Source of the DNA: Patescibacteria group bacterium
GTDB lineage: Bacteria; Patescibacteriota; UBA1384; XYA2-FULL-43-10; 1-14-0-10-43-13
Assembly: GCA_041671645.1 (NCBI GenBank)
Contig: JBAZBD010000001.1
Span: 173,365-237,364 of the forward strand
Reading direction: 5' to 3'
Length of the DNA: 64,000 nt
Positions 32,512-55,163 of this stretch are shown in pieces. The notes under the pieces are model-generated. The model saw only the letters and a program-made list of their open reading frames with translations. It had not been told where the DNA came from and did no database searches. A program made the translations under genes and the position numbers. The first letter of the stretch is position 1, and each line of letters opens with the position of its first letter.

Positions 32512-32904
32512 ATGGAGCTAGACACAATTCGCAAGAGGATAGAGCAATTGGCCAAACTAAAAGAAGAGATCAAGATACAGAAAGAGTTGCTCAAGGGCGA
32601 ACTCGAAAATGAAGAGGAATATTTGAAGGTAGCCGAAGAAGCGAAGGCGGCCAATCAGAAGAAGAAGATAATCAGAGATGAGATCCTAGGCCGTGGGCCA
32701 AATCAGGAAACTTTAGCCAAGATCAAAGATGACAACGAGGAAATCTCAACTCTCAAGGAGATTCTTTCGGCCGAGCTAGTTCAAATTTTCCATGAGAATA
32801 ATACTGATGAGATCGCTGGTCAGAAGATCAAGGTCATCGGCACCCTTGTGCCAAACGCAAAGCAGTATGACAAGAAAAATTTCTCGGGATCATACGGTGA
32901 GTAA
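32512..32904 (+). CDS. Hypothetical coiled-coil protein (130 aa)
   Basis: The ORF has the RBS tggagg. It is Lys/Glu-rich with heptad-like periodicity. Confidence 0.5.
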   Translation: MELDTIRKRIEQLAKLKEEIKIQKELLKGELENEEEYLKVAEEAKAANQKKKIIRDEILGRGPNQETLAKIKDDNEEISTLKEILSAELVQIFHENNTDEIAGQKIKVIGTLVPNAKQYDKKNFSGSYGE

Positions 32905-32947
32905 AGTCTCGGATTAAGCTCGGATAATATTTGAAAATAATGCAGTC

Positions 32948-32990
32948 TGGGACTAAATAATATCATACTATACCATATTATTTAGTCCCA
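32948..32990. promoter_or_regulatory. Perfect 16-bp-arm inverted repeat (hairpin/operator) abutting a promoter -35 box
   Basis: tgggactaaataatat, an 11-nt loop, atattatttagtccca. No T-run follows. Confidence 0.6.
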
Positions 32991-32995
32991 TATGC

Positions 32996-33024
32996 TTGAC
33001 AAGTTGTGATCTGGTTGATATAAT
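32996..33024 (+). promoter_or_regulatory. Consensus sigma70 promoter
   Basis: TTGACA, a 17-nt spacer, TATAAT. Confidence 0.65.
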
Positions 33025-33030
33025 TGCTTA

Positions 33031-33547
33031 ATTTAGTACATTAAAAACTTGAGTTAGAGGGAACGAGATGGGGAGCGGAATTATATTTACCCCGATATAA
33101 TTTCAAAGAGAAATAATTTTTAAAATATATGGTTATTTCCCCCAGCTCGTTCCAACTAAAACAAAAATAACAAGCTATAAGGAATAGCAAGAAAACAAAA
33201 AGCCCATCCTTCGCATAAAGCTACGGAGGGCAAGAAGGAACAAAAACAAAATGCATTTAGACCAGGCTTAAATTAAATAATCATAACGCCTGACAAGATC
33301 TAATACGCAACCAATCAAAAAATTCTCCTATACATTGATAAAATATCAAGGAGGGGAGAAATCAGCATTAGAGACCTAGACCCACTCTCTTAAGGGATGC
33401 AAATCTCTTGGGGGAATCCAAAGTCGAAGCCTCTAAAAACGGGCATAAATGATGAAGCCGCAACATTATTAAAATATTGATTTGCGATCAGTCTTCAAAT
33501 CATTTCTGCCCAAACTAATAAGCCCAGTCGAAAGATTGGGTTTTTTA
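33031..33547 (+). ncRNA. Candidate ~520-nt non-coding RNA of unassigned class. It lies between a consensus promoter and an intrinsic terminator and has no ORF of 60 aa or more on either strand.
   Basis: A long-range stem GGAACGAG (33058-33065) / CTCGTTCC (33140-33147) encloses an inner GGGG...CCCC. There are A-rich spacers and several GGA motifs. The terminator is at 33522-33547. Confidence 0.35.
33522..33547 (+). terminator. Rho-independent terminator
   Basis: The stem cccagtc-gaaag-attggg is followed by TTTTTT and then TTGCCAaaaat, which is shared with 35146. Confidence 0.65.
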
Positions 33548-33667
33548 GTTGCCAAAAATATGGATTAAGCTTGCATAAATCATATTTTTGTGTCATATTG
33601 CGGGCAGAAGTTAGGCCACAATAGTGTGAGTCTAATTTAGTTTTCGCGCACCATAAAGGAGGACGCG

Positions 33668-35074
33668 ATGTCATTGTATAAGTTTGATTTCCCCAAAGGG
33701 GGAAAAGTCATCGAGGGTAAGACGAAGGCTCTTTACGAAGTGCTGGATTATCCCGGATTATTGATCGCTGAGTATAAGTCAGACATTACTGCGTTTGACG
33801 ATCCACGTTTTACAACGGTGTTTGGCACCAAAGCTCGCGATTCCAATGCAGTGACCTGCAGGATCTTCGAACTTTTGCAACAAGCCGGCTTGCCGGTTGC
33901 CTATCTTGGAAAGTTGTCAGAGACAGAATTTGTTGCTCCGCGTGTCCAGATGGCGCCGGTGGAACTCATCACCCGTCGCTTTGTTCACCCCAAGGGCAGC
34001 ATTCGGAAACGTCGACCCGAGTTGCCACCGCATTATCGCTTTGGCGAGCTGACATTCGAAGTTTGTCTGAAGACGCATAATGGTGGCAAGTATACCAACA
34101 TTTTTGGCGCAGAGGTCGATCTGGCCCTGCCGCGTGTCGATGACAAACCTACTGATGATCCGATGGTGTTAAACCCACTTGCTGACGAGTGGAAACTGAT
34201 TGGCAAGAGCCCGCTCTATGATCCAGAGGTCATAGCTACTGTCAAACGCGACGAAGTTTTGCACGGCGTCGACGAGATTACAGAATACCGCCGTTTACTC
34301 CATGCTGCCTTCCTGATCATCGAAGCATTCTTCAAATTGATCGGATGGACGACTTATGACCTTAAGGTCGAGTGCGGAAGACTGAAAGAAGACTTTCAGC
34401 CGGAGGTCGGTCCGCTCCTAAAAGCGGGGACGATCGTCATCGCTGATGTAATCGACCATGACTCCTGGAGAGTATTGGACGAATCTGGCCGTGAAATGTC
34501 TAAGCAAGTTTTTCGTGACATGATCTTGGCTGGCAAACTGGATCAGGATGAGATCGCCCAGATCTACTCTTCCGTCGTCAGAGCCGTCGAGAACTTTCGG
34601 GTTCAAGAACAGGCGCTCGTGCTCTGGCGCGGCTCGGAGGATGATAATTTTCCGGATCTTCAACTCAATGGATCGATGGGCCGGCTCGATCTGAACAATT
34701 TGCCTGGTATCAAGGTAGAACGCATCACCGGCTCCGGTCACAAGCAGACTATAGCTTGTCTGGATCGTCTAAACGCGTTACAGGCACGCTACAAGTATGG
34801 TGCGATTATTGTCGAGGTCGGTCGTAGCAACGGTCTCGGCCCGACACTGGCTGCTCACACAATCTGGCCTGTCATTTCCCGGCCCGCTTCACTTGAGAAG
34901 TGCCCCGGAGATATCTGGAGCAACCTGCGTTGTCCAAGCAACGATCCGATGGCGACAATCATCGACAAGGGGAATGCGGTTCTTTTCGCCCTCCGGCAGC
35001 TGGCACCGTTGAATCCCTACGTCGCCGCCTGGCTCCAATACGGCGTAGAGCAACTCGAAGCGACGCCAGTATAA
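33668..35074 (+). CDS. purC: Bifunctional SAICAR synthetase (PurC) plus AIR carboxylase/mutase-like (PurE-like) fusion, PAICS-like
   Basis: The N-terminus (GKTKALYEV...LLIAEYKSDITAFD...GTKARDSN and VECGRLKEDF...IVIADVIDHDSWR) matches PurC. The C-terminus (LVLWRGSEDD...SGHKQT...GRSNGLGPTLAAHTIWPVISRP...NAVLFALRQLA) follows the PurE pattern. The RBS is aaaggagg. Confidence 0.75.
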   Translation: MSLYKFDFPKGGKVIEGKTKALYEVLDYPGLLIAEYKSDITAFDDPRFTTVFGTKARDSNAVTCRIFELLQQAGLPVAYLGKLSETEFVAPRVQMAPVELITRRFVHPKGSIRKRRPELPPHYRFGELTFEVCLKTHNGGKYTNIFGAEVDLALPRVDDKPTDDPMVLNPLADEWKLIGKSPLYDPEVIATVKRDEVLHGVDEITEYRRLLHAAFLIIEAFFKLIGWTTYDLKVECGRLKEDFQPEVGPLLKAGTIVIADVIDHDSWRVLDESGREMSKQVFRDMILAGKLDQDEIAQIYSSVVRAVENFRVQEQALVLWRGSEDDNFPDLQLNGSMGRLDLNNLPGIKVERITGSGHKQTIACLDRLNALQARYKYGAIIVEVGRSNGLGPTLAAHTIWPVISRPASLEKCPGDIWSNLRCPSNDPMATIIDKGNAVLFALRQLAPLNPYVAAWLQYGVEQLEATPV

Positions 35075-35094
35075 GACATAATCAACCAAGATCC

Positions 35095-35145
35095 GAGAGC
35101 GGATCGCAATGAGTAATTATTACTCAAGCGGTTCGCTCTTTTTAG
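35095..35145 (+). terminator. Conserved terminator module, copy A (also at 37120-37170)
   Basis: The stem gagagcggatcgc...gcggttcgctc has an inner AGTA/TACT hairpin and is followed by TTTTT. Confidence 0.7.
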
Positions 35146-35173
35146 TTGCCAAAAATAATAGTTGTGGTACGAT
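35146..35173 (+). promoter_or_regulatory. Putative promoter
   Basis: TTGCCA, a 16-nt spacer, TACGAT. The same TTGCCAaaaat sequence follows the terminator at 33547. Confidence 0.4.
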
Positions 35174-35222
35174 ATCTGGCAATAGCAGATCTCATGCTAA
35201 ATCTTGCAAAGGAGGTAAGTCC

Positions 35223-35450
35223 GTGCTTATCTCAATAACCGATCGCATCGGCTCCGCTGTAGTTCGGGGCATGATCTCCGATCATAATCCTCCGCCAAAG
35301 CCAGAGGCTACCTCTGGCGCAAAGTTTCAGGTCGGGAACGACCCCATTACCGCAGAAGTTCTGCGCAGTATGAAGCAGAATCAAAACCGAGTCCGTCACG
35401 TTGAGGACCCAGATGATGGAAGACATTCCTCGTTACTGATGTGCAAGTAG
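35223..35450 (+). CDS. Possible small ORF (76 aa, GTG start). The same region could instead be a structured RNA.
   Basis: A strong RBS AAAGGAGG lies 7 nt upstream of the GTG. The sequence GGAGGUAAGUCCGUGCU also resembles the RNase P P4 5' strand GGAGGAAAGUCCGGGCU. Confidence 0.25.
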   Translation: MLISITDRIGSAVVRGMISDHNPPPKPEATSGAKFQVGNDPITAEVLRSMKQNQNRVRHVEDPDDGRHSSLLMCK

Positions 35451-37104: not shown

Positions 37105-37119
37105 TTCTAAACAAGATCC

Positions 37120-37170
37120 GAGGGCGGATCGCAGAGAGTATACATACTCAAGCGGTTCGCTCTTTTTAGT
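37120..37170 (+). terminator. Conserved terminator module, copy B
   Basis: gagggcggatcgc...gcggttcgctc followed by TTTTT, ~85% identical to copy A. It sits between the convergent genes purB and 37166. Confidence 0.7.
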
Positions 37171-44727: not shown

Positions 44728-44877
44728 AATAGTATTATATACTGCTCCAAAGTAGTAGTCAAGACTTCGTGACAGGTATAGTCAAAATCTCGATTCTAAT
44801 AACAAAAAAGTGAGTCACGGAGCCAACAATCGGTAAATAAGACAGTCACGATATAGTGACAAATTGGTCATAAACCC

Positions 44878-44906
44878 TTGACAATCCCAAATAGGCATGC
44901 TATAAT
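44878..44906 (+). promoter_or_regulatory. Consensus sigma70 promoter
   Basis: TTGACA, a 17-nt spacer, TATAAT. Confidence 0.65.
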
Positions 44907-44912
44907 ATACCC

Positions 44913-45364
44913 ATCACGATGAGAAAGGCGAACAACCCACAGGAGGATTAGGCCGCTGCCCAGACTGATAGAACATTTACAACCAAATAGGTACATAGGT
45001 AGAAAAAGATCAAGCCCTATCAATAGATAAGGCGATCCCGATCACAAATGGCACAATCCGGCTCGTATCTCAGGAGATAAGAGCGCAAATTCACGCCACT
45101 TGAGATCATCCCCAGCACACTCAATTGAGTCGCAAGGGGAATTACCCGAATCCCGATCAAATTCCCGCCCCTTAGGCGGAAATATGGAAGATATTATCAA
45201 TATCCGGTTTGGCCGCACAGGTTCAAGCATTTACAAGATAATACATCATATATATAGGATCAGATTCAACCGACTTATGAGTAGTACATTTATCCATGAC
45301 ACAGGAGTTTAGCGATAAGTATAAAACTCACCCCCCATCCTTCGCAAGAAGGGTGATGGGGGGC
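44913..45364 (+). ncRNA. Candidate ~450-nt non-coding transcript of unassigned class, ending in a strong GC hairpin
   Basis: The region has no ORF with an RBS. Internal hairpins include GGGGAATT...AATTCCC and CCGCC-CCTTA-GGCGG. The terminal hairpin CACCCCCCATCC-ttcgcaagaa-GGGTGATGGGGGG is at 45329-45364, with no T-run after it. Confidence 0.3.
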
Positions 45365-45460
45365 TTCCTCAGGAGGGGCAATATTCGTAAGTGTCAACGG
45401 CGCGAATAACGGCGTTTGAGCTCATATCGAGCATATACGCCAGAATTAACGCCAGACCGG

Positions 45461-45585
45461 AATTACTAATTAATAGTTACTAATTACCTAATTAAATCTC
45501 AAGATCCGAGTGTCCAATTGGACATTAAATAATTGGGACTTATTTAGAAATTAGAGCAATTAGATCAATTAGAAATTCTATATAT
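45461..45585. repeat. AT-rich ttctaatt/aattag-family repeat cluster; it contains the 14-bp perfect palindrome TGTCCAATTGGACA (45511-45524)
   Basis: ttactaattaatagttactaattacctaatt ... ttagaaattagagcaattagatcaattagaaatt. Confidence 0.6.
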
Positions 45586-45699
45586 CTTTCTACCATCATT
45601 TCTGATCACTCGGCCGAAACGCCCTGAGAGAAATAGTTTGCTGTGTCCAAAATTTATGTGGCACACACTATCCTACTCTTTTCGCTTTGACGGTGATCG

Positions 45700-53801: not shown

Positions 53802-54041
53802 TCAATAACGGATTACCCCGAGACAAAGTCTTCCCTTCGGGAAAGGGGACCCTTAGGGTCGAATTGTTCAAATTACAAATGTCCAACAGAACAAGTCGCT
53901 CGAAAGAGCGGTTTCTGTGTTTAAACACATTGACAAATTGAGCTCAAAGTGATATAATGTATTGGTGATTAGTCAATCACCAACGGCTCTGCCGTAGGCT
54001 GATCAACGCAGCTATACAACAAATTCGAGCTGCCCATTTGC

Positions 54042-55163
54042 ATGTTGGGTCGGCTCTCAAGGGAGGAAATCATGCACAAATTTCTGTTATTGGCTGTACA
54101 GGTGACCCTCCGGATTATTCTAGGGATCATCCTGGGGATCTGGATAGTACTGTCCTCCATTGTCATGGGCGTGTACTACGCTCTGGAATACGCCTGGCGA
54201 AAGCTCAGCGAAGTTCAAGGGCAATGGAACAAGGCGGTTTCGCTCGGCGCCTACCTGGCTCCGATTTTGATCGTCTTGGCACTCGTTCTGTGGTGGCCTC
54301 AAAAAAAGGTCCACCGCGTCACCCCGTCTCCACGCTCTGCCCCGACTGCCAAAGCGCCGATCCAGGCGCCAACTCCTGATCAGGTAATCATCCCTGACGT
54401 TCCGCAGCCCAATATGCCGATCAAGTCAACGGGAAGCGGAAGCCTTTCAAACGTTCTGGTTATCCTTGACCCGGGTCACGGTGGCAACACCCCCTGGGAT
54501 GGGGTAGACCCGGGCTGCTACTGGCAGTTCAACGGCCAGGAGTATTATGAGGCGGCGTACACATATCGCATGGCCAAGGAGCTTGGCGATATGGTCCGTG
54601 CCGAAGGCGGCGATGTTGCTTACACGGCTTGGTCTCCGACCATGGAGGTGTCGACCTCGCCGCGCGTGGCGATGCCTTTGCCTGTTACTCCGCTTCTCCC
54701 GAACGGTGTGAAACTGACCAACAACGGGACAGGCCTCACGGCTCGTGCTGACGCGGCGAACGCTCTGTACCAGGCTCACAAGGCCAAGTACAGGGGCGTC
54801 TTCTTCCTCTCGCTGCATATCGACAGTATGGGCGAAGGTTGGGACGGGTTGCATGTCTGCTACGATCGACATGCGTCCGAGATGCCGCGCTTGGCTGAGC
54901 TGATCTCGCAAGGGATCAACGAGGGCCGGTATGGCCGACGCTATAAGGGTGTCGCCAAAGAGATAGTCGAAGCTCGTGGCCTCGCAGTGCTGAATCGGAA
55001 TCATAATCCGTTGAAGCACCGAGTGTTGATCGAGCTTGGGATCCCCGGTGATCCCAATGATTCGTGGCGCCTCAGAAATGAGGGCAACCGCCGGAAAATG
55101 CTGGAAAAAGTGGCTCTGCGGCCGCTACTCCAGCTTGCCGAGGAGGTGAAAAAAAGAAAGTGA
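54042..55163 (+). CDS. N-acetylmuramoyl-L-alanine amidase (Amidase_3 family) with an N-terminal TM anchor
   Basis: LVILDPGHGGNTPWDGVDPG and LSLHIDS match Amidase_3. The TM segment is LGIILGIWIVLSSIVMGVYYAL. Confidence 0.75.
   Translation: MLGRLSREEIMHKFLLLAVQVTLRIILGIILGIWIVLSSIVMGVYYALEYAWRKLSEVQGQWNKAVSLGAYLAPILIVLALVLWWPQKKVHRVTPSPRSAPTAKAPIQAPTPDQVIIPDVPQPNMPIKSTGSGSLSNVLVILDPGHGGNTPWDGVDPGCYWQFNGQEYYEAAYTYRMAKELGDMVRAEGGDVAYTAWSPTMEVSTSPRVAMPLPVTPLLPNGVKLTNNGTGLTARADAANALYQAHKAKYRGVFFLSLHIDSMGEGWDGLHVCYDRHASEMPRLAELISQGINEGRYGRRYKGVAKEIVEARGLAVLNRNHNPLKHRVLIELGIPGDPNDSWRLRNEGNRRKMLEKVALRPLLQLAEEVKKRK

Follow-up and report, generated by a model that had tools for sequence, protein, structure and literature searches.

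We analysed a 64,000-nt stretch (the window; positions 173,365–237,364, forward strand, of contig JBAZBD010000001.1 from a Patescibacteria metagenome-assembled genome), which represents 7% of its 868-kb contig, and found that positions 33031–33546 of the plus strand very probably constitute a real gene for a structured non-coding RNA (ncRNA) whose family is not yet catalogued. A structured ncRNA of ~520 nt with transcription of its own had been proposed here in an initial annotation, and the proposal is borne out by a promoter, a conserved core and a terminator at eight of eight distinct loci, by covariation in the 5′ and 3′ domains of the RNA, and by the fact that no reading frame is conserved. 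The RNA is a new family of a known general kind, that of the orphan large structured bacterial RNAs, and its distribution so far is one narrow Patescibacteria lineage. The features on which the analysis bears are as follows (coordinates are those of the window).

32948–32963 and 32975–32990, no strand assigned: perfect inverted repeat with 16-nt arms, just upstream of the −35 box
32996–33024, plus strand: consensus sigma-70 promoter of the RNA gene, matching TTGACA-17-TATAAT at 12/12 positions, with a spacer ending in TGA (extended −10)
33031–33546, plus strand: RNA gene, ~515 nt, its start placed ~7 nt past the −10 box and its 3′ end at the U run
33054–33159, plus strand: 5′ domain, whose closing stem (33054–33073 with 33140–33159) leads to a three-way junction
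33077–33104, plus strand: hairpin A1, with a stem free to vary in which 11/11 pairs covary through double changes
33110–33139, plus strand: hairpin A2, with the conserved loop UUAAAAUAUAU (33119–33130)
33174–33188 and 33202–33231, plus strand: variable hairpins M1 and M2, within A-rich linkers (33174–33231)
33257–33303, plus strand: conserved middle hairpin M3, with the inner stem CAGGC/GCCUG (33263–33267 with 33288–33292)
33324–33359, plus strand: hairpin M4 (UCUCCU...AGGAGGGGAGA), present only in the window and at loci L355 and L357
33368–33436, plus strand: first part of the 3′ domain, in which stems T1 and T2 are nested about a GYAA-tetraloop hairpin of 13 bp
33441–33511, plus strand: second part of the 3′ domain, a long hairpin running from GGGCAUAA to UUCUGCCC
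33520–33551, plus strand: intrinsic terminator, with a stem-loop at 33520–33543, a GAAA loop, U6 and the tail AGUUG

Homologues were reached by walking from neighbouring proteins into metagenome contigs, and were confirmed by blastn and covariance models. Relatives of the PurC–PurE fusion (PurCE) encoded downstream led to loci L001/L002 and L004, those of the 168-aa protein encoded upstream to L355 and L357, and those of the 130-aa upstream protein to L359, L360 and L362. The conservation in relatives by which the candidate was to be judged was found in seven further homologues (L001, L004, L355, L357, L359, L360 and L362), all from related uncultured Patescibacteria represented by metagenome contigs, and with the window included the predicted RNAs range from 488 to 664 nt. 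The hits came from samples ERZ27294316, ERZ27297473, ERZ27245399, ERZ18626762, SRR29758289 and JGI 3300014205 and 3300045131. Covariance models R1 (5′ domain) and R2 (3′ domain) drew on nothing but the three closest sequences and retrieved the five distant members with E = 1e-6 to 1e-12 and 1e-18 to 1e-22 respectively; elsewhere in the window, and across ~1.3 Mb of unrelated loci, they matched nothing. Kept at 8/8 loci alongside the promoter and the terminator tail are GAGATGGG, CCCAGCTC and GATGYAAAT. Searches further afield added no member: a purCE protein-based search of genome contigs returned nothing; a 16-mer from the GYAA hairpin, used as a probe of metagenome, genome and viral contigs, was discarded as too short, since it gave chance hits only, and neither blastn nor model R2 found a homologue among the loci fetched by such 16-mer scans; viral contigs scanned with a 20-mer gave two chance hits only, and blastn of phage genomes gave none.

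The structure of the RNA exceeds chance. Minimum free energy (MFE) folding of the window sequence gave z = −8.6 for the plus strand versus −4.0 for the minus strand, and the z-scores of all eight members lie between −7.7 and −14.5. Covariance-model scores were 50–123 bits in the forward and 24–34 bits in the reverse orientation, and it is because of this difference and of the abundant G-U pairs that we assign the gene to the plus strand. The covariation in relatives by which the candidate was also to be judged proved strong in both domains. In model-guided alignments of the eight sequences, 22/38 pairs of the 5′ domain and 18/51 of the 3′ domain were changed on both sides, with 95.4% and 94.8% of cells paired, respectively, versus 41–53% and 35–53% when the partners were slid; moreover, the observed covariation score was reached by none of 500 shuffles for either domain. 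The structure was derived from three close sequences, and the distant ones were then fitted through compensatory changes.

The RNA is 40% A, is ~57% paired in its MFE fold, and is laid out as a short conserved leader, the 5′ domain, variable hairpins in A-rich linkers, M3, the 3′ domain and the terminator. The long-range stem GGAACGAG/CTCGTTCC of the initial annotation is indeed present, as part of an inverted repeat that pairs 33049–33073 with 33140–33164. Within the 5′ domain, the invariant sequences GAGAUGGG (33065–33072) and CCCAGCUC (33141–33148) pair around a conserved A/G mismatch, the C-rich loop UACCCC of A1 (33088–33093) is conserved, and the A2 helices are 100% paired with double changes at 7/9 pairs; an extra hairpin is inserted at A2 in L001 and L359. 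Of the linker hairpins, M2 is missing in L355, and elsewhere other hairpins take its place. The conserved tract AAAACAAAA comes ahead of M3, which also has an outer tier, a 4-nt bulge and an A/U-rich loop starting UUAAAUUAAA, and whose helix, tabulated manually, comprises eight pairs without a single non-pair in eight sequences and with A-U, G-C and G-U exchanges at five positions. In the 3′ domain, the tetraloop of the window is GCAA (33399–33402), the stem AAGGGAUG/AUCUCUU of the GYAA hairpin is nearly invariant and changes only between G-C and G-U, and the long hairpin of the second part has a conserved internal bulge (A)UAGUC, the loop AUUAUUAAAA and double changes at 13/28 pairs. A hammerhead-like UGAUGA was rejected because it is not conserved among members. 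We set aside as unsupported a pseudoknot in which the 5′ leader (UUAAUUUAGU) would pair with the loop of M3 (UAAAUUAAA): the candidate pairing amounts to 6–9 A-U pairs in 6/8 members, with wobble changes only and −1.3 to −4.5 kcal/mol, and about half of it falls upstream of the likely start site.

The promoter identified at 32996–33024 in the initial annotation matches the consensus throughout and has TG ahead of its −10 box. Perfect TTGACA, a 17–18-nt spacer and a TAnnnT box occur at 8/8 loci, with TGn in 7/8, and the 64-kb window holds three perfect TTGACA-17-TATAAT sites versus 0.03 expected. The third of these, at 53930–53958, lies ~80 nt upstream of a 373-aa open reading frame (ORF) at 54042. 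The perfect 16-bp-arm palindrome reported at 32948–32990 is also present as described, and as RNA it would fold with −22.6 kcal/mol (z = −6.7). Its inclusion with the ncRNA did not hold up: it lies outside the transcript, and the full repeat exists only in the window and, with 10-bp arms, in L357 (2/8 loci). Its left arm GGACTAAATAAT is kept in L355, L357 and L359 within an upstream element, and its right arm has decayed in L355, where an inserted gene carries its own canonical terminator. As judged from these loci, the palindrome belongs to neither the RNA nor the conserved features, and as a conserved operator it was rejected because the repeat is not conserved. Most probably it serves either as a hairpin to terminate or insulate the operon on the rlmN side or as an operator based on a conserved upstream promoter element. 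The element containing the left arm, TCTGGACTAAATAAT-N-ATATTATA at ~32944–32975, occurs in 7/8 loci ~55–85 nt upstream of the RNA start and could be an UP element or a transcription-factor site. In L360, a different hairpin with a U-run overlaps the −35 box, and short tandem repeats of the GTAAGC/AAGTAAGC type lie between the 132-aa gene and the RNA promoter (L360 4960–5055).

At the other end of the gene, the intrinsic terminator of the initial annotation was found as a stem-loop followed by a T run, with an upstream AACUAA able to pair with UUAGUU. The tail T6 + RGT is present at 8/8 loci; the stem-loop is longer in L001, L004, L359, L360 and L362, and the L357 stem shows a compensatory C-G to U-A change. 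A ~55-nt module, AAGATCCGAGRGCGGATCGCA...ACTCAAGCGGTTCGCTCTTTTTAGTT, is repeated after purCE and purB (35088–35150 and 37108–37165), and shares with the RNA terminator a T-run + AGTT(G) tail, including a 19-nt identity with 33542–33560, as does an L355 terminator likewise; this tail looks like a lineage-wide terminator signature.

The gene lies in a 763-nt gap between the stop of the upstream 130-aa ORF at 32904 and the opening of the next gene at 33668. The ORF listing agrees with the initial annotation that there is no ORF of at least 60 aa on either strand of 32905–33667. Its further statement that only tiny ORFs of about 13 aa or fewer occur there was too strong, as about ten mechanical ORFs of 20–59 aa lie in or overlap the gap, for example:

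33041–33190, minus strand: 49 aa
33397–33480, plus strand: 27 aa
33495–33674, minus strand: 59 aa

That the region holds no coding gene is nonetheless upheld, since a conserved small protein was looked for in the relatives and comparison of the frames of the eight members found no conserved reading frame. Indels between members shift the frames, the longest ORFs differ in position and strand from member to member, and peptide-level similarity to distant members, in all frames of both strands, appears only where the nucleotides are conserved.

No known RNA family accounts for the sequence. Rfam 15 at gathering thresholds found only two tRNAs in the window and, at E ≤ 10 on 32850–33720, only spurious microRNA-type hairpin matches; at E ≤ 1 it found nothing at four homologous loci (L002, L357, L004 and L355). 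ARAGORN likewise reported two tRNAs and no transfer-messenger RNA (tmRNA) in the window. In agreement with the by-eye verdict of the initial annotation, Rfam 15 and ARAGORN gave no RNase P RNA, tmRNA, signal recognition particle (SRP) RNA or 6S RNA, and the covariance scan it had proposed, with OLE, ROOL, GOLLD and raiA included, matched no family. Specifically, RNaseP_bact_a/b and related models gave no match at E ≤ 10 on 32850–33720; the OLE, ROOL, GOLLD, raiA and HEARO models gave none there at E ≤ 10 or at the four loci at E ≤ 1; and the purine, ZTP and PRPP riboswitch models matched neither the region nor the four loci. We found no description of such an RNA in Patescibacteria in the literature searched.

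The reading that we favour as a whole, in which this new ncRNA family forms the core of a trans-acting ribonucleoprotein, falls just short of an even chance in our estimation, and its mechanistic part, an abundant trans-acting RNA that scaffolds or binds proteins, is put forward tentatively from features of the sequence. The RNA would be produced abundantly and, acting in trans, would form the core of a ribonucleoprotein. Its sequence-invariant elements would be the sites recognised by at least one protein: the C-rich loop of A1, the A/U-rich loops, the UAGUC bulge, the nearly invariant hairpin capped by GYAA, and the helix GAG-A-UGGG/CCCA-G-CUC, which contains a conserved mismatch. The freely covarying stems would act as scaffolding only. 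In both the T3 stem and the GAGAUGGG/CCCAGCUC helix the sequence is conserved, the only exchanges being between G-C and G-U, and neighbouring stems covary freely; because fixed helices and loops thus adjoin freely varying helices, specific recognition rather than pairing alone is suggested.

Several points weigh against this reading. The pair-count alignments were fitted to the model structure and are hence biased in favour of structure, and the sample consists of eight sequences from one narrow clade. The invariant helices might just as well form tertiary contacts or a catalytic core. According to models R1 and R2, the RNA is absent from locus L361: there, the gene for a 132-aa protein that matches its L360 counterpart exactly is followed, 137 nt on, by oppositely oriented DHFR and ThyA genes. 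The RNA locus seems to have been gained, lost or rearranged at strain level, and the RNA may be dispensable or mobile. Nor did predicted models of the two lineage-specific upstream proteins (~170 and ~130 aa) show an RNA-binding fold. The models of the 130-aa and 168-aa neighbours are confident (predicted local distance difference test scores of 85 and 82), one of the two proteins being a three-helix coiled coil without a match in PDB and the other a helix plus beta-sheet domain with no significant match, and neither belongs to a Pfam, NCBIfam or PHROG family. They were accordingly rejected as RNA-binding partners.

Other explanations start from the same features. A regulatory or sequestering RNA, acting by titration (as 6S and Ms1 do on RNA polymerase and CsrB on CsrA) or by base pairing with mRNA, is unlikely. 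Binding would take place at its repeated A/U-rich loops or at its A-rich linkers, and the string of hairpins joined by A-rich single strands (36–43% A across members), a UUAAA(A/U)U-type sequence common to three conserved loops, the very strong promoter and an M1 loop that reads AAGGA or UAGGA in three members are consistent with such a role. However, GGA is only mildly enriched (6–13 per RNA versus 6–9 expected, of which the MFE fold leaves 0–2 unpaired), the five distant members do not have the GGA loop and none is conserved across the family, and CsrB-like GGA loops were thus rejected as neither numerous nor conserved; in addition, there is no 6S-like rod with a central bubble and no Rfam match to 6S or CsrB. 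We consider it rather improbable that the RNA is a ribozyme or that it self-assembles into a particle made of RNA alone, as was recently shown for ROOL, GOLLD and OLE. Its length, a multi-domain conserved fold with a GNRA-type tetraloop and invariant internal-loop helices, and A-rich strands that could make minor-groove contacts would fit such a role, and PMC12286853 describes homo-oligomers of other orphan large bacterial RNAs seen by cryo-electron microscopy. Yet, one three-way junction aside, the fold consists mostly of local hairpins with no supported long-range helix or pseudoknot, the only candidate being the leader–M3 pairing that lies partly upstream of the likely start; the RNA has no homology to ROOL, GOLLD or OLE, and searches of viral contigs and phage genomes did not turn it up. 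We give equally little credence to a hitherto unrecognised class of large functional RNA, peculiar to one lineage of ultra-small bacteria of the candidate phyla radiation (CPR), whose invariant core would do more than bind protein and would perform catalysis, purine-linked ligand sensing or RNA-only assembly.

Improbable, too, is a very long cis-acting leader or sensor in which regulated read-through of the terminator controls adjacent purine genes. In 5/8 loci, pur genes do lie at the 3′ end of the RNA, in three forms (the purCE fusion, separate purE and purC, and canonical purC), and in L359 the terminator tail forms the −35 box of the pur promoter. But purC is convergent in L355, and the neighbours in L357, L360 and L362 are unrelated or on the opposite strand, so that in these four loci the RNA does not stand in one unit with, and directly upstream of, a regulated gene. 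Moreover, the pur genes have their own 5′ untranslated region (UTR) hairpin and their own conserved promoter, TTGNNN-17-CATATT with TGn, which in the window (33571–33599) lies between the terminator and pur; L001 has ~270 extra nt between terminator and pur promoter; more distant purCE homologues (44% identity) have a purB-purCE arrangement without such a gap; and the riboswitch models gave no match. Because of this separate promoter and UTR hairpin, and because the downstream gene varies, we take the RNA to be a separate transcription unit and not a purC leader: its relation to purC is one of adjacency, and the recurrence of that adjacency may be inherited synteny. A highly divergent universal RNA (RNase P RNA, tmRNA, SRP or 6S RNA) that standard models miss in CPR bacteria is scarcely credible. 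CPR RNAs can be atypical, and none of these RNAs was found elsewhere in the window, where only the two tRNAs were detected; the window is, however, 7% of the contig, and the universal RNAs can therefore lie elsewhere. Besides the negative model and ARAGORN results, direct reading of the family alignments revealed neither the RNase P P4/CR-I element GGAAAGUCC (the nearest string, CCAAAGUCGAAGCC, is not conserved and reads ACAAAAUCAAAACC in L001), nor a T arm, CCA end and conserved tag frame of tmRNA (a GCA-AAU frame at 33399 turns into GUA or UAA in four members), nor an SRP domain IV motif. A small-protein gene or dual-function RNA is just as hard to sustain. Its candidates are a 27-codon ORF from the ATG at 33398 and a 10-codon ORF from the ATG at 33068, but both ATGs lie inside conserved helices without a properly spaced Shine–Dalgarno (SD) sequence, the first is followed straight away by TAA in four members, the second reads ATG-GGA-TAG in L359, and indels disrupt the frames; on these grounds the 27-aa ORF was rejected as a gene.

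The genomic surroundings bear out the initial annotation in part. The radical-SAM gene on the upstream side is rlmN, as it had stated (TIGR00048, 348 bits versus a cut-off of 290), and RlmN and two hypothetical proteins of 168 and 130 aa are encoded upstream of the gap; on the downstream side, its plain purC is in fact a gene for a PurC–PurE fusion, followed by purB. The ribosome-binding site (RBS) that it ascribed to this purC-side gene was found as AAAGGAGG, 5 nt before the ATG at 33668. Across loci, the upstream order of dnaX, dnaB, rlmN, a ~170-aa protein, a ~130-aa protein and the RNA is constant except that L355 has one extra gene and L004 is without the 130-aa gene. The downstream neighbours are as follows.

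Window, L001 and L004: purCE-purB
L359: unfused purE and purC
L355: canonical purC, convergent (Pfam, 218 bits)
L357: unannotated protein
L360 and L362: minus-strand genes

The PurC–PurE fusion of the window (33668–35074; SAICAR_synt + AIRC) has more than 500 similar counterparts in Patescibacteria. The −10 box, 5′ UTR and start codon of purCE (33585–33670) are 100% identical over ~86 nt to L004 2861–2946, with flanks at 55–80% and proteins at 59% identity; this segment could be a regulatory element or reflect a recent short-segment exchange. In the same 5′ UTR, a hairpin at 33619–33640 covaries in L001 and L003 and a second hairpin lies over the SD sequence, with no Rfam match. Between purCE and purB, a 113-aa ORF (35109–35450) runs through the purCE terminator and is probably spurious, and a 75-codon GTG ORF from 35224, after an RBS AAAGGAGG, is a better small-gene candidate. 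A second ORF-poor gap of 959 nt (44728–45686) contains a perfect TTGACA-17-TATAAT promoter at 44878–44906, followed by ~460 nt of moderately structured sequence (z = −4.0) at the end of which (~45330–45365) stands a strong GC hairpin capped by a GCAA loop. It had no Rfam match at E ≤ 10, and its interpretation by eye as RNase P RNA at 44.9–45.3 kb (from GAUAAGAGCGCA and CAAAUAGG) received no support from cmscan; it is possibly another unannotated RNA gene.

Apart from rRNA, few structured bacterial RNAs exceed 400 nt (RNase P RNA, tmRNA, group I and II introns, OLE, ROOL, GOLLD and HEARO), and each has revealed unusual biochemistry. Patescibacteria have genomes of less than 1 Mb with very little spare DNA and, to our knowledge, almost nothing is known of their RNA biology. 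An RNA of 0.5–0.66 kb with a perfect consensus promoter and more than 40 covarying pairs in such a small genome probably serves an important purpose. For now, the narrow known distribution lowers the value of the finding, as does the absence of clues to what the RNA does. The family can already be searched for, probed and expressed in vitro, as it numbers eight members, has two covariance models that work and can be located through a synteny anchor formed by dnaX-dnaB-rlmN, the genes of two small proteins and the RNA.

Among known systems, riboswitches and leaders of purine operons (purine, ZTP, PRPP) share with this RNA a position directly upstream of purC/purE, seen here in several loci, and an intrinsic terminator, but the RNA is roughly five times their size, a promoter of its own precedes it and a second one serves the pur genes, three loci have no adjacent pur gene, and the L355 purC is on the other strand. 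CsrB and RsmZ resemble it in having several hairpins with single-stranded linkers, and one A(A/U)GGA hairpin loop occurs in three members here; they differ in that GGA loops are neither numerous nor conserved in the present family, and no CsrA was seen in the 64-kb window inspected. The 6S and Ms1 RNAs are abundant, stable and trans-acting, have strong promoters and bind a core cellular machine, features that the RNA described here may share. Yet 6S folds as one long rod whose central bubble imitates an open promoter, whereas the present RNA, at two to three times the length, strings separate domains together and has no Rfam match to 6S.

Closer in kind are other orphan large RNAs. ROOL and GOLLD likewise combine many covarying helices and GNRA-type loops with transcription independent of their neighbours; they differ from the present RNA in that Rfam finds no match between them, and in that no association with phages or tRNA genes is seen here, with none found on viral contigs or phage genomes. 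PMC12286853 describes ROOL and GOLLD as forming multimeric cages. OLE RNA (RF01071) shows no sequence or structure match, comes from another host phylum and has a more intricate fold; an OapA-like membrane protein is not encoded near the present RNA, and the proteins encoded upstream have no recognisable RNA-binding fold. According to PMC9723947 and PMC12265935, OLE is a highly structured, highly expressed RNA of ~600 nt found in one bacterial group, and forms a ribonucleoprotein with partner proteins encoded nearby, its biochemical function being not established. The RNA described here is like OLE in its size of 488–664 nt, in its consensus promoter and in the two lineage-specific small proteins encoded just upstream.

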